From a virus: DNA of 42,734 nt. The notes beneath the pieces were generated by a model. It was given only the letters and a program-made list of their open reading frames with translations, had not been told where the DNA came from and did not search any database. The translations under genes and the position numbers were made by a program. Shown here piece after piece: positions 1 through 37,031 of this stretch (positions are counted from its first letter, which is position 1; each line of letters opens with the position of its first letter). The DNA lies in the IMG/VR virus record IMGVR_UViG_3300005647_000006; one strand, written 5' to 3'.

Positions 1-5
1 GTATA

Positions 6-344
6 ATGTCTTTGTATGCCATACGTGGAAATGGTGGAGTTGGCTCATGGGTTCAAGTGGGCAAAACACCACATGGTGGGCTTACTATTGAATTTGTTAT
101 TCGTGATGATAACACTGGTTTTGATGATGTAACTTTCTCATCATTTTCTCAAGTGTATGGATACTTCATCATACTCAATGATCATATTGACAATAACAAT
201 GCATGGAATTTAAGAATATTACAAATTACAGACGGTAGAACTTCAATTGCGGATATGGATATCTTAACTAAAAGTCAAATGCATTCACAGCTTAAAGCAG
301 ATTTTGAATGTAGAGGTGTAATAGATGCTTTATCACGTATGTAA
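6..344 (+). CDS. Hypothetical phage protein ending IDALSRM (C-terminal motif family); start uncertain at window edge
   Basis: ORF track; first of a tightly coupled + strand run of small ORFs. Confidence 0.65.
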   Translation: MSLYAIRGNGGVGSWVQVGKTPHGGLTIEFVIRDDNTGFDDVTFSSFSQVYGYFIILNDHIDNNNAWNLRILQITDGRTSIADMDILTKSQMHSQLKADFECRGVIDALSRM

Positions 345-621
345 ACATTTATATAATGTCGGAGACAAATTTTTAGTTATCGAAAATAATTCGTTCAAGT
401 GGTATGAACATCGATTTGATGAGTTTACGTTTTGCGAATTAATATCTTTTAAAGATGAATTAGATGAAATTGGTGGAGTGACTTACTATCAACATAAAAT
501 AGAATACAATGTCGATAGGAAGGTTATAACAGAACGTACATTGATAACTAATCTTGATGATATGATGAAAGAGTTTGAAGAACATTTAAATTTTAGTGTC
601 GAAAAAATGAAAAAATTATGA
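325..621 (+). CDS. Hypothetical protein ending VEKMKKL
   Basis: ORF; GAGGTG upstream; ATGA overlap with next gene. Confidence 0.75.
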   Translation: MLYHVCKHLYNVGDKFLVIENNSFKWYEHRFDEFTFCELISFKDELDEIGGVTYYQHKIEYNVDRKVITERTLITNLDDMMKEFEEHLNFSVEKMKKL

Positions 622-974
622 GTGAATATATCTACAGATGCTGTCAATTGAATTTTGGGGAGGAAGTTATGGTGTATGTAAAATACTTCTATCCAAAATC
701 AGATTCATTTTCGTTAGTTGTCGAGGATTCATTGGATGTTAATGATGATTCGGTGGAAACACAATATTGTGGTGATTATGAATTTGCATCAACTTTTATG
801 AAAGATATTGCAAATTCTCTTTATGCGGATAGTGCTAAATTTCAAAATGGTGTTAATTCTGTAGAAGATATTAAAGATAAATACCTGTTTTTACAGGCCA
901 GATTTGCTGATGGTGGCGGTGAATGGTATAATTTAGATGTAATTAATACGATATCTAATATGGAGAAAGTTTAA
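618..974 (+). CDS. Hypothetical acidic protein ending ISNMEKV
   Basis: ORF, ATGA-coupled. Confidence 0.75.
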   Translation: MSEYIYRCCQLNFGEEVMVYVKYFYPKSDSFSLVVEDSLDVNDDSVETQYCGDYEFASTFMKDIANSLYADSAKFQNGVNSVEDIKDKYLFLQARFADGGGEWYNLDVINTISNMEKV

Positions 975-977
975 ATT

Positions 978-1199
978 ATGCGTAGAACCGTAGTCGTGAA
1001 ACGACATAGACAAAGATTAATGATTCATTTATATTTTAATAAAGAAAAAACGGTTCTTCATTACGATTGCACTGAAGCTATGGCAATGGCCTATTGGTAT
1101 TTTAGGACATTTTTTTCTGAGCCAATTACACGACATAATTTTGATCAATCAATAATAAAGATACAGTCGTTACATTACGACAAAATGGAAACACCATGA
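978..1199 (+). CDS. Hypothetical protein
   Basis: ORF, GGAG upstream, ATGA overlap with next gene. Confidence 0.7.
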   Translation: MRRTVVVKRHRQRLMIHLYFNKEKTVLHYDCTEAMAMAYWYFRTFFSEPITRHNFDQSIIKIQSLHYDKMETP

Positions 1200-1480
1200 A
1201 TTATGATACTGAATGTACATTTTGTATGTCATTAATAGAAGAAAATGATGCACTAGAAAACAAAATTAATGATTATAAAACCGAGCTGGAAGAAGCTGAA
1301 AAGGAAGATCTTATAGTCGCTAAGGCAATTGAAGATTATATGACAAATATCGAAGATCAGAAATTTGAGATAAAAGAATTGGAGAAAAAAGTAGAAGATC
1401 TAGAATGGGAGCTTGAAAATTCACAGATTTCAGAGAAACGTCTTTCTACTATTTTAACTGATCGAATGGAGGATATATAA
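1196..1480 (+). CDS. Coiled-coil hypothetical protein with N-terminal CxxC, ending TDRMEDI
   Basis: Heptad-like E/K/L-rich sequence. Confidence 0.75.
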   Translation: MNYDTECTFCMSLIEENDALENKINDYKTELEEAEKEDLIVAKAIEDYMTNIEDQKFEIKELEKKVEDLEWELENSQISEKRLSTILTDRMEDI

Positions 1481-1680
1481 TGAATGACATTAATGATTTA
1501 ATTAAATCTATTAACAACTTTGTAGAATATCAGCCCAAGCTTGAAGATTTGACACAGATATATGATTCTGTTAGTGATAAGGATATGGTGAATACTGTTT
1601 GGCAGGCAGTCGAAAAAGAAAAATTAATCAGATTGCAAAATGAAATGAATGTCAAAATTAAGGATCTTGATGAGCTATGA
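1480..1680 (+). CDS. Hypothetical protein ending IKDLDEL
   Basis: GGAGG RBS, TAATG overlap. Confidence 0.75.
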   Translation: MNDINDLIKSINNFVEYQPKLEDLTQIYDSVSDKDMVNTVWQAVEKEKLIRLQNEMNVKIKDLDEL

Positions 1681-1856
1681 ATGGTGATGATATTAAAATA
1701 AGTCAGGCTGCAATGCGTAAATTTTTATTGGCAATTGAAAATTCTAATATTGGCATACCGGAAGAACGATTGAAATCTATGTTTAGTGGAATGACAGATG
1801 ATGAAATTGATACTGACAAAATGGATGCTGATATCGAAGCTTTAAATGAATTATGA
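1677..1856 (+). CDS. 59-aa hypothetical protein (MNGDDIK...IEALNEL), not in ORF track
   Basis: Translated by hand; ATGA overlaps at both ends. Confidence 0.7.
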   Translation: MNGDDIKISQAAMRKFLLAIENSNIGIPEERLKSMFSGMTDDEIDTDKMDADIEALNEL

Positions 1857-2029
1857 AGTTGTTTGATTGGTTAGATCATCGCGAGAGAGAAAAAATCACT
1901 AATGATAAAGTTATTGTATTGAATGTATACGATGGTGAGCTGCTAGAACAATCTGAAATAGATAATCGTATCAGAATAAAGAATGAAAGTGAGTTAGAGC
2001 CGATATTAGATGAACTGGAAAAACTCTGA
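1853..2029 (+). CDS. 58-aa hypothetical protein (MKLFDWL...LDELEKL), not in ORF track
   Basis: Translated by hand; ATGA-coupled to previous ORF. Confidence 0.7.
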   Translation: MKLFDWLDHREREKITNDKVIVLNVYDGELLEQSEIDNRIRIKNESELEPILDELEKL

Positions 2030-2060
2030 GCCTAACTGAATGGACTCAGAATTAATTGTT

Positions 2061-2138
2061 TGGAGCGGATAGCCGGAATCGAACCGAATGCAATTTCTGT
2101 TTGGAAAACAGAGGTTTTACCAATTAAACTATACCCGC
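2061..2138 (-). tRNA. tRNA-Gly(TCC) with encoded CCA and an atypical T-stem
   Basis: GCGGGTA/TATCCGC acceptor stem, U73, TCTGT-TTTCCAA-ACAGA anticodon arm, TTCGATT T-loop, CCA end. Confidence 0.9.
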
Positions 2139-2183
2139 TAAGGTTTGTTTATTTATTATAAAAACATTTTAAGGAAAAATCAA

Positions 2184-2429
2184 GTGAATTATTTTTTAGT
2201 AACTGAAAATGAAAGTGGTGAGAAGCTATTAAATATGAAATGCTCTAATTACGATGATGCTTTGCACGAGTATGATGTATGTTTAGGTGTGGGATACAAG
2301 GCTATCCATATCATGGCAACATGTGAAGATGTGTTGTTCTTACGTGATGCCAAATCAATAAAAATATTAAAATCCACTGATAAAGAATATAATTTTGAAA
2401 TCAGTATCGATGAATTAATATCAATCTAA
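2184..2429 (+). CDS. Hypothetical protein ending IDELISI (likely GTG start at 2184)
   Basis: AAGGA RBS 8 nt before in-frame GTG. Confidence 0.7.
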   Translation: MNYFLVTENESGEKLLNMKCSNYDDALHEYDVCLGVGYKAIHIMATCEDVLFLRDAKSIKILKSTDKEYNFEISIDELISI

Positions 2430-2438
2430 GGAATTGAC

Positions 2439-2822
2439 ATGAGATTATTTGAAAAAGATAGAATGACAAAAACACAATTTCATAAAAGCTACGATCCATT
2501 TCAGTTAATGAGTAAATTATTAGCTGATGGTGATTTGCTTCTTGCTGCGGAAAAATTAAAAGAAATACACGATCAAATTTTAGCATCTGATTCTACTGCT
2601 ACTAATCCAATACTGATGATGGAAAACAATTTTGATGAATATACTTTCAACATAACTTATCAAAGAGATGAAACTGATAGAGAACTCAAGAATCGATTGA
2701 AGTATAGAGAAAAAATAAAAAATGATGCTAAGCGAAATCATGAACGAATTGATACAGACGAAATAAAAAGACTAAAAGAACTTGCAGGCAAGCATGGTTT
2801 CAATGTCTCTAAGAGAGGGTGA
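2439..2822 (+). CDS. Hypothetical protein, paralog of 3031..3414
   Basis: Shared ETDxELxxR...ExKxLxxLAxKxG motif. Confidence 0.8.
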   Translation: MRLFEKDRMTKTQFHKSYDPFQLMSKLLADGDLLLAAEKLKEIHDQILASDSTATNPILMMENNFDEYTFNITYQRDETDRELKNRLKYREKIKNDAKRNHERIDTDEIKRLKELAGKHGFNVSKRG

Positions 2823-2823
2823 T

Positions 2824-3021
2824 ATGCCAGATCATGCTAAACAGGCATTAGAACATTTAAGGCTCGTATCACAGGGCAAGGCTACTCTTGAGATACATTC
2901 AACCATGTATTGTATTAGGCAATTACGAGCAACAATTGAAGATCAACAAGAAGAAATAGATAAGTTGAAACAATTTAATTCTAATATGACTGAAGAAGTA
3001 GATACACTCAAAAAACTCTAG
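2824..3021 (+). CDS. Small coiled-coil protein ending VDTLKKL
   Basis: GAGGGTG RBS before ATG at 2824. Confidence 0.7.
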   Translation: MPDHAKQALEHLRLVSQGKATLEIHSTMYCIRQLRATIEDQQEEIDKLKQFNSNMTEEVDTLKKL

Positions 3022-3030
3022 GAAATTATC

Positions 3031-3414
3031 ATGGCAGTTAAAGCATTTGCAGATAGGAAATTTGAAAAGAAATTAACTACTCACAACTTTGGAAGGATTG
3101 AATTTTCTGAATTGGTTGGTAGTATGGATTATATCATTTCTTATATTTCAACCCATGAAGATGCGCTACTAGAAGAATATCCAACAGCAGTTAATATAAG
3201 AATAGAGCGACGTGATGATGGTGGATATGATTGGGATGATTCGTGGTATCAAGTTAAGTTTGATCTTCCTGAAACCGATGAAGAACTTGCAGAGCGTATG
3301 GATATAGCCAGAACTGCTGACTTACGAAAACAAGAACATAAAGCAGAAATGAAAAAAGTTGAATTAAAAAAATTAGAAAAGTTAGCAGCTAAATTGGGTA
3401 AGACAGTTGTATGA
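3031..3414 (+). CDS. Hypothetical protein, paralog of 2439..2822
   Basis: ETDEELAER...ELKKLEKLAAKLG; AGGA RBS. Confidence 0.8.
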   Translation: MAVKAFADRKFEKKLTTHNFGRIEFSELVGSMDYIISYISTHEDALLEEYPTAVNIRIERRDDGGYDWDDSWYQVKFDLPETDEELAERMDIARTADLRKQEHKAEMKKVELKKLEKLAAKLGKTVV

Positions 3415-3650
3415 CAGAGCTTAAACGAAAATCATCTGAACAAGCATTGATTAATGACTTTGCTATTAGATATTACACAAGTACTAAAAATTCTGATTTC
3501 TTCACATTCAGTATTTCATTAAGCGGATATAGAATGGAGTGTAGGGATCTTTTTCGTACTGAAGAAGATGCTCTAGATGCTGGAATATGTGTTGCTATGG
3601 AACATCTTGGTATTAAACAATTACTGGATGATATGGAAAATGTTGATTAA
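3411..3650 (+). CDS. Hypothetical protein
   Basis: ATGA-coupled ORF. Confidence 0.7.
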   Translation: MTELKRKSSEQALINDFAIRYYTSTKNSDFFTFSISLSGYRMECRDLFRTEEDALDAGICVAMEHLGIKQLLDDMENVD

Positions 3651-3987
3651 AAACATCATAGAATATATTCTTACTCAATATTATCGATATTTGCAGGATA
3701 AGAATGATCGCAATTCAATAAAAGAAATTGATAGAATCTTTAAAGACAATACAATTATTGATATTCCTACGTTTTTACTTGCACGAAAAACAACATACGG
3801 CATTACAGAGGAAAATGTTAAAGCTATTTTAGTTGATATTAAAAAAGGTGAACGAGAATTTATAATATCCACTACAATAAATTCTATATGCACAAATTTT
3901 ATTAGATTGCGAGTAGATAAAATTGATTTTTTGGGATATCACAAAACAACAATCAACGATATAGTTGATGAGATGAAATTGATATGA
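3640..3987 (+). CDS. Hypothetical protein ending VDEMKLI (likely start 3640)
   Basis: In-frame ATG with short overlap to the previous gene. Confidence 0.7.
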   Translation: MLIKNIIEYILTQYYRYLQDKNDRNSIKEIDRIFKDNTIIDIPTFLLARKTTYGITEENVKAILVDIKKGEREFIISTTINSICTNFIRLRVDKIDFLGYHKTTINDIVDEMKLI

Positions 3988-4148
3988 CTATCGATATAAG
4001 ATGGAGGGTAACTGTCGAACTGTTAAGATAATAGTGGAAGTTAAAGATGTGTATGGGCGTGAAAAATGGTATAGACGCTCAATAGTAAGAACTTTTAATC
4101 GGCCTGACAGAACTAAAATGTATAATAAATGCGATGCTATGGAATGAT

Positions 4149-4724
4149 TTAACGGCGCATAAAAATAACGACTCGTGGATCGTCATTATGTACCTGTCCG
4201 GCATCATCAACAAAAGAACTAACACCATTAACTATTGCATAAGGTTCGCCAGCAGTTCCTTCATTCTTTGATTTATCTACTCTGTAACCAGCTTTACTAT
4301 ATAGTGAATATAGTGGCCCAGACAAAGAACCATCTTCACTACGAGTTGCAAAACAATCAAGGTTGTTAGCACCATTTTGGTTTGCTGAAGCCATGATAGC
4401 CCTTCCAGCTCCACTATTAGCACTAAAAACTGATACTAATTCATTACCAGATTTAATCGCATACCCACAAGCATTATTTGAACCAAGAAAACAAGCTGCT
4501 TTCTGATAATCGCTAGCAGAATATACTGTCAACGATTCAAGACCTTTGGCATGATTGCCTTTAGCCATATCATTTTGTCGGATTCTTGTGATTGCTTTAT
4601 GGAAGATTCTACCATCTACTTGTTTAAAGGTTAATGGTGCTATTTCAGTATTGCTTTTATCAAGCTGATCATCTGACAGCTTCCCCATATCCGAAAAAGC
4701 TTCTGTTAATTCATATAATTTCAT
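4149..4724 (-). CDS. GNAT-like (polyvalent-protein type) domain protein with capsid-targeting-like N-terminus MKLYELTE
   Basis: GYAIKSGNELVSVFS..GAGRAIM..A..GA..LDCF..LY.KAGY resembles GNAT motif A/B; late promoter 6 nt upstream. Confidence 0.6.
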   Translation of the reverse strand: MKLYELTEAFSDMGKLSDDQLDKSNTEIAPLTFKQVDGRIFHKAITRIRQNDMAKGNHAKGLESLTVYSASDYQKAACFLGSNNACGYAIKSGNELVSVFSANSGAGRAIMASANQNGANNLDCFATRSEDGSLSGPLYSLYSKAGYRVDKSKNEGTAGEPYAIVNGVSSFVDDAGQVHNDDPRVVIFMRR

Positions 4725-4730
4725 ATAATG

Positions 4731-4738
4731 TATTTATG
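4731..4738 (-). promoter_or_regulatory. T4-type late promoter CATAAATA, 6 nt before ATG (leaderless)
   Basis: Matches the TATAAATA consensus at 7 of 8 positions; intergenic. Confidence 0.7.
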
Positions 4739-4747
4739 CAGTTTTCG

Positions 4748-5098
4748 TTATAGATCAACAAGATCTGAGACACTTTTAGCTACTTTATGGGACTTGTGTA
4801 AATTACACAGCATTATAGACTGTAGGTTCCCACATTGCTCCCAGTACTCAGCTACCATCGATCTATGCTGTAGCATATCTTCAATAGTATCGTAGATCAC
4901 AGCCATTCTAAGAGAGTTACACCAGATTGGTTCTGATGTTCCTTTGAAGCCAGATAGATAAAAATATCTATTCCCCATCCCTTTAACTGGATTCTGTGCA
5001 ACAACCACAAACGGTGGAATGTTGGTGTGTTTTGCCATATTCATAATACATAATTCTTGTAGCCTATGTATATATTTAGGATTGGAATGGAATAACAA
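4748..5098 (-). CDS. Hypothetical protein ending VSDLVDL (true start probably near 5044)
   Basis: ORF track. Confidence 0.7.
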   Translation of the reverse strand: MLFHSNPKYIHRLQELCIMNMAKHTNIPPFVVVAQNPVKGMGNRYFYLSGFKGTSEPIWCNSLRMAVIYDTIEDMLQHRSMVAEYWEQCGNLQSIMLCNLHKSHKVAKSVSDLVDL

Positions 5099-5138
5099 AT
5101 TTTTATTTTAAAATGATTTTAGTAATAAATATATGTCG

Positions 5139-5363
5139 TTATATGTTATCAAGTTCTTCAAAAAAATCATCATCTAAAATATAATATCTTTTATAAGTGA
5201 ATGTTCTTCCATCCATTTTTTGAAGTTCTATTAACTCATTAAACTCTTTAATAGAAGTAAAAATACGATTGACTGCTGGATCTACTTCTTTCGTGCCTGA
5301 TCGATTTGACGAGTAGAAATAAGAATCTCCATGCACATCTGTAATCTCAACGAAAAATTTCAT
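5139..5363 (-). CDS. Hypothetical protein ending FEELDNI
   Basis: ATGA-coupled ORF. Confidence 0.75.
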   Translation of the reverse strand: MKFFVEITDVHGDSYFYSSNRSGTKEVDPAVNRIFTSIKEFNELIELQKMDGRTFTYKRYYILDDDFFEELDNI

Positions 5364-5659
5364 ATATCAGAAAGACCAGAAGTATCTTCTTCAATATCAG
5401 ATTTTGTCTTTTTTACTTTCTCTACTTTATAAGTGTATTTGCTTTTGGTGCTTGATAGATTTATACATTTTTGTTGTGCCATATCATATTCAGAATATAT
5501 TTTAGCTCCATGTGATGATTTGTTGAATGAGCCATCCGCCATAAGATATTCCAGTGAATCAAGTACTACTGATCGAGTAACATAAAATAAATTATTGGGA
5601 TCATTAAAAAACTCCCAACCACTTTCAAAGTCTTCAATACCGAATATCATTTTATCCAT
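5360..5659 (-). CDS. Hypothetical protein ending TSGLSDI
   Basis: Coupled ORF. Confidence 0.75.
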   Translation of the reverse strand: MDKMIFGIEDFESGWEFFNDPNNLFYVTRSVVLDSLEYLMADGSFNKSSHGAKIYSEYDMAQQKCINLSSTKSKYTYKVEKVKKTKSDIEEDTSGLSDI

Positions 5660-5907
5660 TATATTTTTCCTAAATCAACTAATGATTTTTTAATTGATTC
5701 TTGATCCAAAAGTATATCTACAACCAATACACATGTAGGATCAATGAAAGTTAATCTATCACTGTGTGGATCACCAGTATGAACACCAACTCTTTTCGCT
5801 GTTATTTTCTTAACTTCATAGACACTTACGCCTGCATACTTGGTTTTCCCACCAACCCATACAATTCGCGATCCGACTTCTATTGTGCTTCCCAATCCAT
5901 CTTTCAT
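5659..5907 (-). CDS. Small SH3/KOW-like beta protein ending LVDLGKI
   Basis: DGLGSTIEVGSRIVW...VKKITAKRV pattern; GGAG RBS. Confidence 0.7.
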   Translation of the reverse strand: MKDGLGSTIEVGSRIVWVGGKTKYAGVSVYEVKKITAKRVGVHTGDPHSDRLTFIDPTCVLVVDILLDQESIKKSLVDLGKI

Positions 5908-6007
5908 TTTGATATTCTCCCAATTAAACTATTTTATAGTATTTTGTGGGTGGATTCAATTTTAATTTTAATTAGCTGATATACGCTGAAACTAATTGAA
6001 TTAATTC

Positions 6008-6015
6008 GATAAATA
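6008..6015 (+). promoter_or_regulatory. Late promoter GATAAATA, 6 nt before ATG 6022 (leaderless)
   Basis: Motif and spacing. Confidence 0.65.
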
Positions 6016-6021
6016 ATATCT

Positions 6022-6249
6022 ATGAAGGATTTTATCGTTAGGCGATTTGCCAAAGACTCATTACAATTTGATTTTTATCAGTCAGGACAATGGACTGGTG
6101 ATGCGGTTGCTGCTACCAAACTATCTACAGTAGCTGCTAATAAATTAATTGAGAAATTAAATTCTAAATCAGATGAATATATCTATTCAACAATGTTTCG
6201 TAGACAACCACCATTTGCTGGAGTTGTTAATGATATGACTAAATTTTAA
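6022..6249 (+). CDS. Hypothetical protein ending VNDMTKF
   Basis: ORF after late promoter. Confidence 0.75.
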   Translation: MKDFIVRRFAKDSLQFDFYQSGQWTGDAVAATKLSTVAANKLIEKLNSKSDEYIYSTMFRRQPPFAGVVNDMTKF

Positions 6250-6502
6250 ATAATTCATCCATAAATAGATCAGCCTGATGTTCTGGCATTTCTTGTATCT
6301 CATAATCGTATTCTGTTTCACCATCAATATCCAGAAACGATTTAATTTCTATTAATCTATCTTCACACACAGGAGTTTTGATTAGATCAAAACTTGTCCA
6401 ATCTTCTTTCATTGATAAAGGGTCGCCCACTTTATCTGAACCACAAAAATGATATAGATGATCGGATGTTGAACTGTTTAATATAACGGTATAGTGCATC
6501 AT
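6239..6502 (-). CDS. Hypothetical protein ending MDELFKI
   Basis: ORF track. Confidence 0.7.
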   Translation of the reverse strand: MMHYTVILNSSTSDHLYHFCGSDKVGDPLSMKEDWTSFDLIKTPVCEDRLIEIKSFLDIDGETEYDYEIQEMPEHQADLFMDELFKI

Positions 6503-6508
6503 TGAATT

Positions 6509-6673
6509 TTAACCTATGAGAAATCCAGTTAAAAAGAATAAACCATAGCTCAATATTCTATAAACCGATGCCACTGGTTTTTCCTTATGGTATATCGAAA
6601 GGTATATAAAAAACAAGCCATTTAAAAAAACCAATATGGCTGCGAAGTGTTCTGGTTGTAGTGAATTTAACAT
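6509..6673 (-). CDS. 54-aa two-TM membrane protein, not in ORF track
   Basis: Translated by hand (MLNSLQPEHFAAILVFLNGLFFIYLSI...); TATAAT 6 nt upstream. Confidence 0.6.
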   Translation of the reverse strand: MLNSLQPEHFAAILVFLNGLFFIYLSIYHKEKPVASVYRILSYGLFFLTGFLIG

Positions 6674-6716
6674 GTGAGTATTATACACTAAAAATTAATT
6701 ATTTTCTGTTAACTGA

Positions 6717-11007: not shown

Positions 11008-11402
11008 TGCGAATTCGATTAAAGCACCATTATGGATTATCACACCACGATTTTGATGATGGTATAGATCATCAGTTGGGTGCATACTTTGCTGTCAGGA
11101 GTTCTCACGACTTCCTAACAGATGATAATCATAACTTTCGTGTACTAGCATCCAGCATTACACATGCTGGCGAATTAATTAAATTCGACCAAATTCAAAT
11201 TTACAAGAACTCGAACACAGAATCTATTGTATATGATGGTAGGATAGGATCATTACAAACTCAATACGACTTTCTATACACTGACAATGAATGGTTTTCA
11301 TGTGAATATTTTTACAACAAAGAAAAATTCACAAACGATAAGAGGCGTTATTATTCGTATAAACGAAAAGCAATTCCCCACCTAACAGTGGCTTATGCTT
11401 AA
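11007..11402 (+). CDS. Hypothetical protein
   Basis: TAATG-coupled ORF. Confidence 0.7.
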   Translation: MRIRLKHHYGLSHHDFDDGIDHQLGAYFAVRSSHDFLTDDNHNFRVLASSITHAGELIKFDQIQIYKNSNTESIVYDGRIGSLQTQYDFLYTDNEWFSCEYFYNKEKFTNDKRRYYSYKRKAIPHLTVAYA

Positions 11403-11760
11403 TTATTTCAAATCGATTTTAAATAATCGCAGAGAAAAGAAAAAAATAAAAAAATTATATCGTTGCATAGAAGTTGGTGATTATATTTCTATTAACAACG
11501 ATGATGTTGCGATATCTGGAAAAGTTCTTGAATTATTTACCAAAGATCCATCTACAAATAATAGATTGCTTATTAGTGTAGATAAAATTGCACTTTCTGG
11601 TGATTATAGTGACATTGCTGATAAAATGGCTGCGGATTATCTTATAGATAGAATTAAAGATACCGGAACTCATTATTTTTTTGGATATAAAGAAATAACA
11701 TCATTAAAAGATACTGAAAATAGAATCAATAGAACTATTGCAGAATTGGATGACATATGA
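11395..11760 (+). CDS. Hypothetical protein ending IAELDDI
   Basis: ORF track. Confidence 0.75.
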   Translation: MLNYFKSILNNRREKKKIKKLYRCIEVGDYISINNDDVAISGKVLELFTKDPSTNNRLLISVDKIALSGDYSDIADKMAADYLIDRIKDTGTHYFFGYKEITSLKDTENRINRTIAELDDI

Positions 11761-16378: not shown

Positions 16379-16669
16379 TTACAATCGTTCGAGTTCGTCT
16401 ATTACATCATCGAAAAGCTGTCGGGCTATATTTTTAGAGCTGACGATTGAATTGTTGCCTAATTTACGTTCTGGGATGTTTTCTCTAATCATCCCACATT
16501 CCTCACACTCAAATGAGTATAGAAGATTTTCGTTGCTTTGTACTGGGCCAAAACATGAATTATTGTTTGGGGCGCGACAATGACTATGAAAATTATAATA
16601 AGTTACGTGATGACCTATTGAGAATTTTGGTTTTTTAAATCCAAATAATTTCTTGAATAATTTTAACAT
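16379..16669 (-). CDS. Hypothetical Cys/His protein ending IDELERL
   Basis: CxxC; ORF track. Confidence 0.7.
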   Translation of the reverse strand: MLKLFKKLFGFKKPKFSIGHHVTYYNFHSHCRAPNNNSCFGPVQSNENLLYSFECEECGMIRENIPERKLGNNSIVSSKNIARQLFDDVIDELERL

Positions 16670-16941: not shown

Positions 16942-17223
16942 TTAGATAGCTGACAGACCATCTGTTATGCATATGGCTTCAAAAGAATCATCAGCCGTTA
17001 TCACTATTTTATTGACTCTGGAAATTGTTGACCAAAATGCACCATCGTGATTACGCACTTTAATACGTAGATCATCTTCATAATGATGTGTATAGGGAGG
17101 ATCATTGGATTGATACCATCCGTAATGCTTAGCTACAACATCTGCTACGACTAATTGATCATCATCGTTGAGGATTTCAACGGTATCGTTTATATCGGCT
17201 TCTAACCATTCTGGATATTTCAT
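16942..17223 (-). CDS. Hypothetical protein ending TDGLSAI (start revised to 17223)
   Basis: Upstream 'CYNIA' codons are the TGCTATAAT promoter. Confidence 0.7.
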   Translation of the reverse strand: MKYPEWLEADINDTVEILNDDDQLVVADVVAKHYGWYQSNDPPYTHHYEDDLRIKVRNHDGAFWSTISRVNKIVITADDSFEAICITDGLSAI

Positions 17224-17251
17224 TGCTATATTATAGCAAAATGGCATTAAA

Positions 17252-18034
17252 TTAATGTGATCTATTCGATATTAAAGTATCGTTTTTGAGTTCTTCTACT
17301 GTTGAATACACAAATGATGTAGGTGTGATAAAACTCTCACCAGTGTTCACTATAGCAAGTTCAACAATCTCAATACCAGAAACCACCTTAGATGATAACT
17401 CATGCTGCTCGTAGACGTATGATGAAATTGTGCCAATAGCAGCAGGCTTATTATATTCATCACACACGAATGATAATCCACCAGACATTCCACCCATTAC
17501 TCTTGCATCTGTAAATAATTTATTATTGCCGTGGCCGATTACTGTACCTTCAGTTATAAACAATTCACCTTTATTTTCTGATGGATATCCTACATTCCAT
17601 ACTGGTGTAAAGAAATCAAACGAACCTTCATGTAAAATTGGTATGGGAGTTAGTCCAGTAGAATTTCCCTCTAATACCATTATATCCAAATCTTCATATC
17701 GTGCTACAACAAATAGAAGTTCTTCTTCACCTTCTGAATTTATAATTACGTTTGTTGTATCATCTTTTGGAGAAACATGATCAGCGGAAACCCATATGCC
17801 ATCAGCAACTAAAAATACGCTACCCTCACCAATAGTTCCACTTGTTTCATACACAATCATTTGTTTGACTGGTAAATCTCTGGAAGCTATACAATTTGGT
17901 TCCACTGAATTATTTAAATATGTTGCCTGTGCTAAAGCCGCTGGAGGCCAAAGTTCTAAAGCAGTTGAATAAAGAAATGCTACCATTAATAAGAGTAATA
18001 CTATCATTTTAGTATAAAATATTTTATTTAACAT
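17252..18034 (-). CDS. Membrane-anchored or secreted trypsin-like serine protease
   Basis: SADHV (His), DIMVL (Asp), GMSGG (Ser); N-terminal hydrophobic segment. Confidence 0.85.
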   Translation of the reverse strand: MLNKIFYTKMIVLLLLMVAFLYSTALELWPPAALAQATYLNNSVEPNCIASRDLPVKQMIVYETSGTIGEGSVFLVADGIWVSADHVSPKDDTTNVIINSEGEEELLFVVARYEDLDIMVLEGNSTGLTPIPILHEGSFDFFTPVWNVGYPSENKGELFITEGTVIGHGNNKLFTDARVMGGMSGGLSFVCDEYNKPAAIGTISSYVYEQHELSSKVVSGIEIVELAIVNTGESFITPTSFVYSTVEELKNDTLISNRSH

Positions 18035-23399: not shown

Positions 23400-24002
23400 T
23401 TAAATATTATCCAATGGATCTAATGCCAAATTAAATGATTCGTTTTTATGTTTTATAAGATCTGTAAACACTTCCCCTATTATACAGTAAATAAATTTTA
23501 TGATTTGCTCGCTGTAATATTCGAGAGCGACGTTATTATAACTTGAATGTGGAAATACATCTAAATTATTTACTATAGTTACTCCATGTTTTCTGTAAGT
23601 TAATTTGTTTTTTACTGGAATTGCAGAAATTGTCAATGCTCCAAAACTACGATTAATTTCATTGATTTCATTGATTTCGATATTATATCTTATATCGTAT
23701 TCATTTTTTGGTTTTGGTGGTGTTAAAGAAACTCCAGAAGATACATGATTATCTGATTGTGCTTCAAAATAATAAAAACGAAACAAAATTTCAGATATGC
23801 CACCATCTTGTATAAGAGAAGACATGCGCTCGATTGTCAGTTGGTCAAAGAATCCATACTTGGTATGTGTGCCGGTGCCGGTTGTTATGAACATGCTATA
23901 CAGATTGAGATAATCATTAGAAATTAACTGTTGGGTGTCACCAAGAGTTAAGTCATTTGGTGCAAACTTTTCATCTACACCCCGAACGACTACGGTTGAC
24001 AT
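23400..24002 (-). CDS. Hypothetical protein ending LDPLDNI
   Basis: Coupled ORF. Confidence 0.75.
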   Translation of the reverse strand: MSTVVVRGVDEKFAPNDLTLGDTQQLISNDYLNLYSMFITTGTGTHTKYGFFDQLTIERMSSLIQDGGISEILFRFYYFEAQSDNHVSSGVSLTPPKPKNEYDIRYNIEINEINEINRSFGALTISAIPVKNKLTYRKHGVTIVNNLDVFPHSSYNNVALEYYSEQIIKFIYCIIGEVFTDLIKHKNESFNLALDPLDNI

Positions 24003-26039: not shown

Positions 26040-26375
26040 TTAATTTTTTCGACGTTTTTTAACCAACTTTAATGGGCGGGGTTTTTCAAAGGTAATTCCC
26101 TTTTTGTATGCTGGACGCCAAGCACCAAAACACTGCGAATGCTCTTTATCTACTGCGTATAAATCTTGTGAAAATTCTTCTTCTTCACCACCACTTAATG
26201 TGACGGCTTGACCAGAAGAATTAACTACATCAAAATTATCCGCACCATGTGAATTTTTAATATCAGAAAACCAATGTGCTGGTGCACCAAACCATAAACT
26301 TTTTTTAGGGCGCTTGCCATCATCAGGTCTTCCCGATCCTTCACCACCTTCTATTAGCCACTGTTTGAAACTCAT
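26040..26375 (-). CDS. Putative internal head protein (MSFKQWLIE leader)
   Basis: Leader resembles T4 internal-protein capsid-targeting sequence. Confidence 0.6.
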   Translation of the reverse strand: MSFKQWLIEGGEGSGRPDDGKRPKKSLWFGAPAHWFSDIKNSHGADNFDVVNSSGQAVTLSGGEEEEFSQDLYAVDKEHSQCFGAWRPAYKKGITFEKPRPLKLVKKRRKN

Positions 26376-27670
26376 TACAACTTATCCAATTCACCGTTAA
26401 CGTTATAACCAATTTTTGGAACCGTAATGCTATTAACATATGAACGCAATGAACGAGATTCACCACCTTGAGCAATGAATATAGCAACATCACTAGGTAT
26501 ACGATATAACATTGGTCCCATAAGAGTAGTCATAAAGGTTTGTGCTTCTTTAAGACCAGAAACAGTTCCCTTCTCAAGCATTCCACGTAGATCATCAAAA
26601 GCATTTGCAAGATCAGTATAGAAAACTTTATCATCAGTTTTTGTACTGATTAATTCTTCAGCAGTTTTTCTTGCATCAGCAGCACTTTCTTTTAATTGCT
26701 TTTTAAGTGCTGGTGGTATTTTAAGTTTAACTTCATCTTCGTTATCAAGTGCATCTTGCTCAGATGGTTGATAAATTCTAGATTCTTTATCTTTCATACC
26801 ATACACAGTATCGTATTTTGGTGATGGTTTAATATCACCATTGAAATTACCTGCTACTTTATTTACGGTTTTCAATACATTATTAGTCGAATGATCAGCA
26901 TAGTAATGCTCATTTACTGTTTTACTTTCCTTAACACATTTAGCACAAGGCTTTTTCGCTTCTTTAGCGTGATAATCGGCGAGATTAGCAGTTGGCTTAG
27001 CAAGCTCATGTCGTTGCTTACTAAGTGATTGAGCCTTAGTTCGATTTAATTTTTCTAAACGTGTGTGGCTCTTGTTATGTGCCAAGCAGCTCTGACATGA
27101 AGTATCTTCCGTAACTTTATTAATTTTGCTTTCAGTATCTTTCAATGTTTTTGCCTTTGGTGATGGTTCGTTATTTTTCTTTTTTTCTATTTCTTCACAC
27201 GAAGCGCATTGACCCATTGTAGAATTCTTTACATGTTTTTCTGAGGCTTCTAGATTTCCTTGTTCCTTTTCTTCTCTAGACTTTACAAGTTCTTCGCGTT
27301 TGTACTCACCACAAGTACAATTAGAGTGTGGGCTTCCAGCATCTTCGGTTACAGTTTCTGCTTCTTTAGAAGCTTTTTCTTCAAGTTCATTTTTCATAAG
27401 TTTGGCTCGTCGTTTGGCTTCTCGTTCAGCTTTAGATTTATCATCTTTATTAAAGATTGCGATAGTATCTAGGCATTTGCGGGTTTTTATATTCTTATAG
27501 AGCTTAGTTATGGTATTAATTAATCCTTGAGCATTAGTTCGATGAACATACTCTTTATAATCAACAGAATCGCGACAATCAAGTACCAACCAAAAATCGT
27601 TAGCAGTTCCACGCTCAGTGGCTTCAGCTAATACACGACTATTAATTGCACTTAATTCTTTGTAACTCAT
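26375..27670 (-). CDS. Putative internal head (poly)protein with Cys/His modules
   Basis: VLAE/VTE/VNE sites; CxC and CxxC pairs; late promoter at 27707. Confidence 0.6.
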   Translation of the reverse strand: MSYKELSAINSRVLAEATERGTANDFWLVLDCRDSVDYKEYVHRTNAQGLINTITKLYKNIKTRKCLDTIAIFNKDDKSKAEREAKRRAKLMKNELEEKASKEAETVTEDAGSPHSNCTCGEYKREELVKSREEKEQGNLEASEKHVKNSTMGQCASCEEIEKKKNNEPSPKAKTLKDTESKINKVTEDTSCQSCLAHNKSHTRLEKLNRTKAQSLSKQRHELAKPTANLADYHAKEAKKPCAKCVKESKTVNEHYYADHSTNNVLKTVNKVAGNFNGDIKPSPKYDTVYGMKDKESRIYQPSEQDALDNEDEVKLKIPPALKKQLKESAADARKTAEELISTKTDDKVFYTDLANAFDDLRGMLEKGTVSGLKEAQTFMTTLMGPMLYRIPSDVAIFIAQGGESRSLRSYVNSITVPKIGYNVNGELDKL

Positions 27671-35355: not shown

Positions 35356-35769
35356 TTAAGTAGCTCCTGTTATTCGATTATATATTTCCGTATCTCTATT
35401 GTCTTTGAACGTATCTGATTGACATTTAAGACAATTTACTACTAACCAATTAACATCCTTTGATTTTATACCCCAAATACCATCAGTGCTTGAACATTCC
35501 ATACACACAGTTGATGATTTTTGTTCGTATCGGCGCATTACATCTATAGCAGTTTTTAATGGATTTTTATTTTTTATATATTCAACATATATTACTAATA
35601 CACCAAATTTTTCTTTAATTAATGTTAGTTTATAATCTTCATCCACAGCAACTAATTCTGTATGTAATTCTTCAACCAATGATTTCCATCCTACAGGAAT
35701 GTGTGATGAATATTTTTCATCTAAATGTTTTTTCATTTCTTCTGGTATGTTTATGTGCTGTTCTTTCAT
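35356..35769 (-). CDS. Conserved-type phage hypothetical protein (GW...IKEKFG.L..Y...CxxC...CxxC)
   Basis: Motif recalled from a widespread phage family. Confidence 0.8.
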   Translation of the reverse strand: MKEQHINIPEEMKKHLDEKYSSHIPVGWKSLVEELHTELVAVDEDYKLTLIKEKFGVLVIYVEYIKNKNPLKTAIDVMRRYEQKSSTVCMECSSTDGIWGIKSKDVNWLVVNCLKCQSDTFKDNRDTEIYNRITGAT

Positions 35770-37031
35770 TTCAAATTCTCCACCAAATCATCTATTGATT
35801 CTATGTGAGCTAAACATAAATGCTGTAATTCTGCAAATGTTCTAGGTTCCTGTGTTGGTATATCTGCGGGAGATATCTCAGATTCATAGAAATGGTTTAT
35901 GTGATTTACTTGTGAATCATGATTTAATCTTCCAATGTGAATTTTTTGATCTAATCTGCCGGGTCGAATTAATGCACCATCCAAATCATCTGGATTTTTA
36001 TTTGTAGTAGCTACAACAATACATCCATTGAAATCAATAATACCATCAAGTACATTTAAAAATTGTTGCATTGTTGATTCATCTTTCTTTTTTGGTTCTT
36101 CGGCTGTCTCTGATTTTTTATTGCCAGCACCCCTTCGTTTCTTTCCGATAGATGTAAAATCTATATCTTCAATTACAATTATAGAGTTTGGTTTTATCTG
36201 GTGCATCAATTGAGAAAAATTAGAAATTGATTCTGCTTTTAAAGAATACAAATTCAAACTATGTTTGTAGGAGAGATGTGAAATAATTGAAGTCTTCCCA
36301 GTACCCGGCTCTCCATACAATAAATAACCTCTTTTGAATGGAACATTTCTTTTCTTATATAGTTCCTTCTTCTCCAAAAAGTTTTTAATATCATTTAAAA
36401 AATAATTGGCTTGCTCACCCACTGGTGGATATACCTTCTTAGGCATTCCCAAATTGCGCCACCATTGTGAATATGAATCTGATGTATCATAGACAAACGG
36501 GCCATCATCATCTTCTAAATGAGAAATTGCGCTGAAAAATTTAAGAATATTTAATGCTGAAAAAGAAAAGAATCTAACGTACAGTGATTCTGTCTGTGCA
36601 TAGACTTGCTTGTTTTCAATTTTCTGTCTTGATATAGACATTAGTTTATATTTTGGATGGAACATCCATATAGTACCGTAGCCTGCAACTAACTTATTAA
36701 CTTTCTTTTCTTTAGTAACTGATGTTTCATAATCATCATGAGCAGTTTCAGTTTCACCACGAGGTGTTATTATTTTATAGGTGCGTTGAAATCTAGTATA
36801 CTGTTGATTTTGTTCAATCCAGATATTAATTTTATTATAATCAGGATCTGCAACATAGACTTCAAGTTCTCTTACAATCATATTGTAAAGAGATTTTTGA
36901 AAACCATTCAGTACTGGTGCTATGAAACCCCAAATAAAATGAAATGCAGTAGATAATGCTGCAAGGCCAATGAGAGAGGCTGACATCTCCCCTAAGCCCA
37001 TACTGTCTAAATATGATGCAAATTGTTCCAT
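35766..37031 (-). CDS. BCS1-like membrane-anchored AAA+ ATPase
   Basis: N-terminal TM; PFKRGYLLYGEPGTGKTS, IVIEDID, LNVLDG, TTN...LD.ALIRPGRLD. Confidence 0.9.
   Translation of the reverse strand: MEQFASYLDSMGLGEMSASLIGLAALSTAFHFIWGFIAPVLNGFQKSLYNMIVRELEVYVADPDYNKINIWIEQNQQYTRFQRTYKIITPRGETETAHDDYETSVTKEKKVNKLVAGYGTIWMFHPKYKLMSISRQKIENKQVYAQTESLYVRFFSFSALNILKFFSAISHLEDDDGPFVYDTSDSYSQWWRNLGMPKKVYPPVGEQANYFLNDIKNFLEKKELYKKRNVPFKRGYLLYGEPGTGKTSIISHLSYKHSLNLYSLKAESISNFSQLMHQIKPNSIIVIEDIDFTSIGKKRRGAGNKKSETAEEPKKKDESTMQQFLNVLDGIIDFNGCIVVATTNKNPDDLDGALIRPGRLDQKIHIGRLNHDSQVNHINHFYESEISPADIPTQEPRTFAELQHLCLAHIESIDDLVENLK

Follow-up and report, generated by a model that had tools for sequence, protein, structure and literature searches.

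Small genes with a shared C-terminal tail

The window analysed here is the whole 42,734-nucleotide (nt) stretch of IMG/VR virus record IMGVR_UViG_3300005647_000006, and the element in question is a short C-terminal tail carried by many small proteins that it encodes. The window has a G+C content of ∼33% and short, densely packed genes. The DNA is that of an uncultured giant marine phage. By Pfam and PHROGs its gene content is that of a large T4-related phage rich in auxiliary genes: it encodes an Rnl1-type RNA ligase split by an HNH gene, the RNA-repair domains HAD_SAK_2 and cREC_REC and further GmrSD_C, dCMP deaminase, thioredoxin, Hsp20, PhnD, MerC, a Trypsin_2 protease, and a BCS1-like AAA+ ATPase. 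In reverse orientation it corresponds to roughly the initial 42.7 kb of JGI contig Ga0114957_1000124 (108.9 kb); the same phage is also present on ENA contig ERZ27241782 k141_181523 (168 kb), which runs 48 kb past the window, and on one Logan contig. The window was analysed together with 16.5 kb of upstream DNA of the same phage (contigs L001 and L003), ∼59 kb in total with 134 open reading frames (ORFs).

An earlier note on this DNA had described about 20 unrelated small proteins between positions 6 and 6,502 that end in a common seven-residue motif, and all 16 C-termini that it quoted, as well as two near-matches, are present in the sequence as written. With ORFs taken from a simple longest-ORF caller, the core motif [LM]-x-x-[LIVMF]-stop was found at 16 of 23 called ORF ends in window 1-6700, compared with 0.9 expected from its internal frequency of 0.038 (3.8% of internal positions; binomial p 4e-18). 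It was found in 0/17 shadow (out-of-frame) ORFs of the same region. In the remainder of the window 9/66 ORF ends match the core motif (1.9 expected), and five of these nine matches (11395-11760, 16379-16669, 16942-17247, 23400-24002, and 26375-27670) look genuine. The same tail was found on approximately two dozen further small genes in the upstream 16.5 kb. The shared tail is therefore well above chance, and the figure of about 20 was an undercount, since the tail continues upstream and on five genes further along the window.

A stricter test, again scoring C-termini against internal positions as the earlier note had proposed, used a leave-one-out 12-residue profile with the threshold set at the 99.5th percentile of 16,317 internal windows. 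Above this threshold were 36 of the 134 C-termini, compared with 0.67 expected. Only three profile matches were displaced by 1-4 residues from the protein end, which indicates that the terminal position itself is conserved under selection and bears out the claim that the tail is anchored to the stop codon. Thirteen of the 16 tails first listed pass the profile; those at 618-974, 1196-1480, and 6022-6249 match the core motif only. Approximately one third of the small, otherwise unrelated proteins end in the tail. Among the controls, phage T4 gave the core motif on 1/83 annotated proteins and a profile match on 0/88 (first 50 kb, same ORF caller), phage KVP40 gave a profile match on 1/79 (first 50 kb, same caller), and two unrelated marine viral contigs, L013 and L014, gave 0/32 and 0/42 (core motif count only). 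In a relative at ∼55% identity, a 97-amino-acid (aa) protein ends in ..MSMINNLKEI, the same tail pattern. We concluded that the tail is specific to this phage lineage.

The tagged and near-tagged genes of the window are listed below with their profile scores. Both strands are used, as had been reported; for minus-strand genes the start coordinates given in the earlier note are the stop ends.

6-344 (+), 112-aa ORF, tail ..GVIDALSRM, profile 4.2, no Pfam family
325-621 (+), 98-aa ORF, tail ..SVEKMKKL, profile 4.2, same protein on 4 public contigs
618-974 (+), 118-aa ORF, tail ..TISNMEKV, core match only, profile -1.6
978-1199 (+), 73-aa ORF, near-match ..YDKMETP with M at -4 and a terminal P, excluded from the tagged count
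1196-1480 (+), 94-aa coiled-coil-like ORF, tail ..LTDRMEDI, core match only, profile 0.2
1480-1680 (+), 66-aa ORF, tail ..KIKDLDEL, profile 11.9
1677-1856 (+), 59-aa ORF, tail ..DIEALNEL, profile 7.7
1853-2029 (+), 58-aa ORF, tail ..ILDELEKL, profile 16.2
2184-2429 (+), 81-aa ORF, tail ..SIDELISI, profile 9.7
2794-3021 (+), 75-aa coiled-coil-like ORF, tail ..EVDTLKKL, profile 9.6
3411-3650 (+), 79-aa ORF, near-match ..LLDDMENVD (a good tail plus one residue), excluded from the tagged count
3640-3987 (+), 115-aa ORF, tail ..IVDEMKLI, profile 14.0
4748-5098 (-), 98-116-aa ORF, tail ..SVSDLVDL, profile 7.4, orphan (matches itself only among 5.8 billion proteins)
5139-5363 (-), 74-aa ORF, tail ..FFEELDNI, profile 6.9
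5360-5659 (-), 96-99-aa ORF, tail ..DTSGLSDI, profile 8.2
5659-5907 (-), 82-aa ORF, strands followed by a C-terminal helix, tail ..SLVDLGKI, profile 4.8
6022-6249 (+), 75-aa ORF, tail ..VVNDMTKF, core match only, profile -3.0
6239-6502 (-), 87-aa ORF, tail ..FMDELFKI, profile 9.4
11395-11760 (+), 121-aa ORF beyond the range of the earlier note, tail ..TIAELDDI, profile 7.1
16379-16669 (-), 96-aa ORF beyond the range of the earlier note, tail ..VIDELERL, profile 15.5
16942-17247 (-), 101-aa ORF, tail ..ITDGLSAI, core match only, profile 1.3
23400-24002 (-), 200-aa ORF, tail ..ALDPLDNI, profile 7.7, orphan (matches itself only among 1.84 billion representatives)
26375-27670 (-), 431-aa K/E-rich ORF, tail ..VNGELDKL, core match only, profile 1.4

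The near-tails at 978-1199 and 3411-3650 are possibly those of decayed members. Two untagged 127-aa paralogs lie within the tagged array (2439-2822 and 3031-3414, both +) and end alike in another, basic C-terminus (..LKELAGKHGFNV.. / ..LEKLAAKLGKTV..).

No close cultured phage was found. Megablast of window 1-6600 and tblastn with the 481-aa and 200-aa proteins as queries gave no matches among phages, scans of IMG/VR with four window proteins gave no relatives, and an IMG/VR scan with the RF-1-domain protein led to two unrelated phages, both without tails. The relatives at ∼55% protein identity are the syntenic ENA contigs L009, L010, and L011, which contribute rIIA/rIIB, DNA ligase, and ClpS; the block syntenic with window 29-42 kb runs on in these contigs with ClpS, guanylate kinase, IMPDH, DNA ligase, PRPP synthetase, and rIIB/rIIA.

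Selection on the peptide and shape of the tail

We examined codon usage in 42 tails. Position -4 is encoded by TTG (13), ATG (9), TTA (8), CTT (7), CTG (3), and CTC (2), ten different codons are used at -1, and no multi-copy DNA repeat was found. The use of five Leu codons plus ATG at -4 without a DNA repeat indicates selection on the peptide, in agreement with the earlier note.

A pattern of this kind could in principle arise as a by-product of nucleotide constraints at gene ends, i.e., the ribosome-binding site of the next gene, the stop codon context, or base composition. The tail is present on 26/67 genes whose stop codon overlaps or abuts the next start and on 16/67 genes that precede gaps or convergent genes. 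In favor of the by-product, GGA or GAG occurs in codons -5 to -2 of 18/26 coupled tagged genes and of 6/16 uncoupled ones (window and L003), and the acidic tail codons may double as the Shine-Dalgarno sequence (ribosome-binding site) of the next gene. This would be a secondary effect that leaves the tail itself unexplained: the tail is equally found before long gaps or convergent genes, synonymous codons vary freely, the 17 out-of-frame ORFs do not match, and phage T4, with equal G+C and gene packing including dense small early genes, is devoid of it. The nucleotide explanation is thus largely refuted, and we give it next to no likelihood. We concluded that the tail is real, anchored at the C-terminus, and selected as a peptide.

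A sequence logo was built from the 42 tails, which were selected on positions -4 and -1 only. The consensus is h(-11)-[EDN]-x-x-h(-7)-[DES]-[ED]-[LM](-4)-[DE]-x-[IL](-1)-COOH, where h is a hydrophobic residue. Beyond the selected positions, the logo contains 1.1 bits at -11 and 1.4 bits at -7, both hydrophobic, and ∼1 bit at each of the acidic positions -6, -5, and -3 (random maximum 0.73 bits). Position -11 is I, M, L, or F in 29/42 tails and -7 is occupied by I, V, L, C, or M, with no conserved aromatic position in the tail; position -4 is L in 33 and M in 9 tails, and -1 is I in 21, L in 17, and F once. Positions -10, -6, -5, and -3 are acidic or polar, K is frequent at -2, the net charge of the tail is approximately -1.4, and P or N is enriched at -14, as expected of a helix N-cap. 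The core of the seven-residue motif described earlier holds, but the motif extends over ∼12 residues; -11 is an additional hydrophobic position, and acidic residues occupy -10, -6, -5, and -3. The hydrophobic spacing (-11, -7, -4, -1) fits a single helix face, and the last ∼12 residues probably form a portable, amphipathic, net-acidic helix.

The hydrophobic positions also follow an a/d/e-like heptad pattern. This pattern would suit tails that bind one another, as an association handle through which the small proteins would form mixed oligomers or a single assembly without any further receptor; a self-recognising motif would also be expected to be uniform within a genome and to differ between genomes. 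Twelve residues are nevertheless short for a stable coiled coil, and the net charge of approximately -1.4 disfavours self-association. Complex prediction with two unrelated tagged proteins (tail-tail), run without controls, gave a score of 0.00, which bears on neither outcome. We consider tail-tail association distinctly unlikely.

Bodies, membrane topology, and expression of the tagged genes

The tagged proteins are small (median 98 aa, range 58-431 aa, with the 200-aa and 431-aa proteins as exceptions) and somewhat acidic overall. After removal of the last 10-12 residues, all-against-all blastp and phmmer comparison detected just four two-member families among the 134 proteins, and profile-based comparison found one seven-member and one four-member paralog family. 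The profiles of three upstream paralog families recruited none of the tagged window proteins, even at E < 1. The tagged proteins have no Pfam family, two of them yielding coiled-coil noise only, and exhaustive homolog searches with two (4748-5098 and 23400-24002) returned in each case only the query itself. The earlier statement that the protein bodies differ is supported by all three methods (blastp, phmmer, and profiles).

The seven-member family consists of tandem paralogs located 2.7-5.1 kb upstream of the window (L001 1591-4020, minus strand), each composed of a transmembrane (TM) helix, a small beta-barrel, and the tail. A profile of this family returned this phage's own paralogs only. 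In one of the seven (L001 3001-3315) the tail has decayed to ..SLEKDNVH, as though this member no longer took part in the system. An AlphaFold2 model of the family (pLDDT, the predicted local distance difference test score, 80) contains an N-terminal TM helix, a small five-stranded barrel of the Sm/Tudor/SH3 type, and the tail as a separate terminal helix at residues 101-113. In 7/7 paralogs the TM segment is followed by basic residues, which by the positive-inside rule argues that the barrel and the tail are cytoplasmic. A single-sequence AlphaFold2 model of the 82-aa protein (5659-5907) places a helix at residues 70-81 with pLDDT 39, too poor for use. At the level of sequence comparison, the tail sits on bodies without detectable mutual similarity, soluble and membrane-anchored alike.

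The tagged genes could also have arisen from a single small ancestral gene or a few of them, in which case the helix would be the last conserved structural element, packed on its own body with no partner. Tandem paralog families are indeed present (four phmmer pairs and the seven- and four-member profile families), and small phage genes can diverge very fast. Common ancestry is harder to reconcile with body sizes from 58 to 431 aa and with TM plus beta-barrel and coiled-coil-like types that show no profile cross-recruitment. In addition, a purely structural helix needs no exact end at the stop codon, and L/M at -4 and the acidic positions are kept across differing folds, which structure alone does not need. 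We regard this explanation as very doubtful; even given extreme divergence from few ancestors, the tail would remain the one constrained element.

None of the recognisable enzymes carries the tail, as the earlier note had stated. The Trypsin_2 (HtrA-like) protease (260 aa, 17252-18034, minus strand) has a signal-peptide-like N-terminus and no PDZ domain, and is probably exported. The BCS1-like AAA+ ATPase (35766-37031, minus strand) has a hydrophobic TM-like segment at approximately residues 16-45, as in mitochondrial Bcs1, and is kept in a relative (L009 12932-14212). The C-terminus of the ATPase (..IDDLVENLK) is tail-like but out of register, and this ending is not conserved in the relative.

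For gene expression, we scored TAAATA (T4-late-type) boxes within 60 nt upstream of gap-preceded starts. By a crude count they precede ∼16/40 such starts beyond 6.7 kb and ∼2/36 in the tagged arrays, which suggests that most tagged genes are not late genes. The boxes in 12.4-34.3 kb include one before the tagged 431-aa gene. A sigma-70 promoter scan found fewer sites than in shuffled sequences. The palindrome TGTGAGTATATCACA (TGTGA-N5-TCACA) is located in L001 6141-6241, between two divergent tagged-gene arrays and 500-600 nt upstream of the window; the classical CRP box with an N6 spacer occurs at chance level in the window and is absent from L003.

The promoter counts bear on a role of the tail as a packaging or translocation signal, by which small folded proteins would be loaded into the prohead or passed to the BCS1-like translocase. 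The T4 capsid-targeting sequence, encapsulin cargo-loading peptides, and the C-terminal helices of scaffold proteins act in a similar manner. T4 internal proteins and encapsulin cargo are loaded by one terminal peptide on unrelated cargo (PMC3012670, PMC8229669), transport of folded proteins into heads has been proposed for phage BCS1 by Iyer et al. (PMC7824862), and the tagged proteins are nearly all small. The scarcity of late-type boxes in the tagged arrays (∼2/36 against ∼16/40 elsewhere, in the crude count above) points the other way, as do the lack of a conserved protease site ahead of the tail and of head genes nearby; ∼100 different cargo species would also be without precedent. A packaging signal is, in our view, scarcely probable.

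Possible readers of the tail and comparison with known systems

A short helix with a single conserved face that stops exactly at the carboxylate and is attached to dissimilar bodies resembles a docking peptide. On balance we favor, by a little, a role in docking, with the tail as a portable helix recognised by one partner common to the tagged proteins. In this proposal a single shared receptor would accommodate the hydrophobic stripe (-11, -7, -4, -1), together with the free carboxylate of the last residue, in a hydrophobic, probably basic-rimmed pocket, and the differing heads would thus be brought to the same place or machine. Such a partner would be cytoplasmic and probably phage-encoded, and by analogy with the T4 epitope discussed below the leading concrete candidate may be a gp45/PCNA-type clamp.

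Several points weigh against docking on a common partner. Genes for a clamp, polymerase, gp33/gp55, or PDZ, TPR, or BRCT proteins were not found in the ∼59 kb by Pfam, PHROGs, and tblastn: Pfam and PHROGs searches of all larger window proteins and 82 further ORFs detected no clamp, PDZ, TPR, or BRCT domain, and tblastn with T4 gp43, gp44, gp45, gp55, and gp62 gave no match in this DNA or in the relatives. The readers named in the earlier note (ClpX/ClpP, Lon, FtsH, Hsp20, the BCS1-like ATPase, and the clamp) could not be tied to the tail, and the Trypsin_2 protease, Hsp20, and BCS1-like AAA+ protein, all found in the window, could not be linked to it. The tagged proteins have no public orthologs, so that conservation of the tail on diverging bodies can be judged from paralogs and one relative's protein. 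Helicity and exposure of the tail are based on one shallow-alignment AlphaFold2 model and one poor model, and >100 clients for one pocket would be unusual for a phage.

The tail might instead be a shared degron or turnover tag, read by host ClpXP, ClpAP, FtsH, or Lon or by a phage AAA+ protein such as the BCS1-like ATPase. Bacterial C-terminal degrons are likewise strictly C-terminal with a non-polar last residue, the phage encodes the membrane-anchored BCS1-like AAA+ protein, and the relatives encode ClpS. The tail has no resemblance to ssrA-type LAA or MuA-type basic C-motifs, however: the tails end in [DE]-x-[IL] and carry a net charge of approximately -1.4, which sets them apart from an ssrA-like or ClpX C-motif degron. 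Acidic residues close to the C-terminus are usually stabilising, a conserved helix of three turns exceeds what known degrons require, and the present data link no protease to the tail. We therefore judge a degron to be unlikely.

Returning to the docking helix, we tentatively propose, with rather less than even confidence, a broader hypothesis: giant phages may use a genome-specific C-terminal "address tag", in which >100 small, fast-evolving proteins of unrelated folds share one 12-residue helix that binds a single phage-encoded receptor or each other. If true, an accessory proteome would here be organised in a manner not described before, and other jumbo-phage lineages may do likewise with tags of their own. 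The genes of giant phages are mostly small orphans without a functional clue, and a shared handle would mean that many of them act via one partner or site. The 12-residue peptide could be used as bait for its reader and as a label that defines the class in metagenomes. With a clamp-like hub as reader, the T4 "tool-belt" idea would grow to cover a hundred proteins instead of three; with a protease or translocase as reader, the tail would be a phage-wide turnover or sorting code.

The earlier note knew of no described phage system of this kind, and full-text literature searches turned up no phage for which a C-terminal tag is described across the proteome. The clamp-binding epitope of T4 is, however, a described analogue on a small scale. 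T4 gp43, gp33, and gp55 carry hydrophobic and acidic C-terminal epitopes that follow divergent linkers, are interchangeable, and dock on the gp45 clamp (PMC2988020). In both cases a short hydrophobic/acidic C-terminal segment follows a variable linker and is portable among unrelated proteins of one phage. In the T4 record gp43 ends in ..SLDFLFG and gp55 in ..SLDFLYEAND, and the T4 consensus [ST]-L-D-F-L-[FY] is aromatic-rich, whereas the present tail is without conserved aromatics and has L/M at -4, I/L at the terminus, a different register, and helical spacing over ∼12 residues. The T4 epitope is carried by three replication/transcription proteins; the present tail is on well over 40 small proteins with no assigned function.

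The PIP box of PCNA clients, Q-x-x-[LIM]-x-x-[FY]-[FY], is an example of one hub with many clients, and the motif is often C-terminal. It shares with the tail the three-residue spacing from [LIM] to a hydrophobic residue, and acidic residues often follow the L. The tail differs in that -7 is I, V, L, C, or M rather than a conserved Q, in the absence of the aromatic pair, in the requirement for the extreme terminus, and in its small orphan clients. We also compared the tail with class III PDZ ligands ([DE]-x-h-COOH): D or E is present at -3 in 23/42 tails and -1 is hydrophobic in all of them by selection, the periodicity is that of a helix, not of a strand, and searches of the ∼59 kb detected no PDZ protein.

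The T4 capsid-targeting sequence and encapsulin cargo peptides are similar in that one short terminal peptide sends unrelated proteins to one shell (PMC3012670, PMC8229669). The T4 sequence is N-terminal, ∼10 residues long, and cleaved off at L/I-x-E by the prohead protease; the present element is C-terminal, with E at -5 in 13/42 tails and no consistent cleavage site. Encapsulin cargo peptides are Gly/Ser-rich, in contrast to the putative acidic helices described here, and the tagged genes mostly do not have late-type promoter boxes.

Legionella Dot/Icm effector signals, the SspB XB motif, and poxvirus PRANC/F-box proteins likewise combine variable heads with a common C-terminal element that addresses a single machine, and their readers are known. 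They differ from the present case in sequence and organism, and the DNA examined here gave no sign of a secretion system or of a partner of the ClpX or cullin type. Docking of a C-terminal peptide on a hub is known in principle; what is new in this phage is the scale, the sequence of the tail, and the class of its clients.

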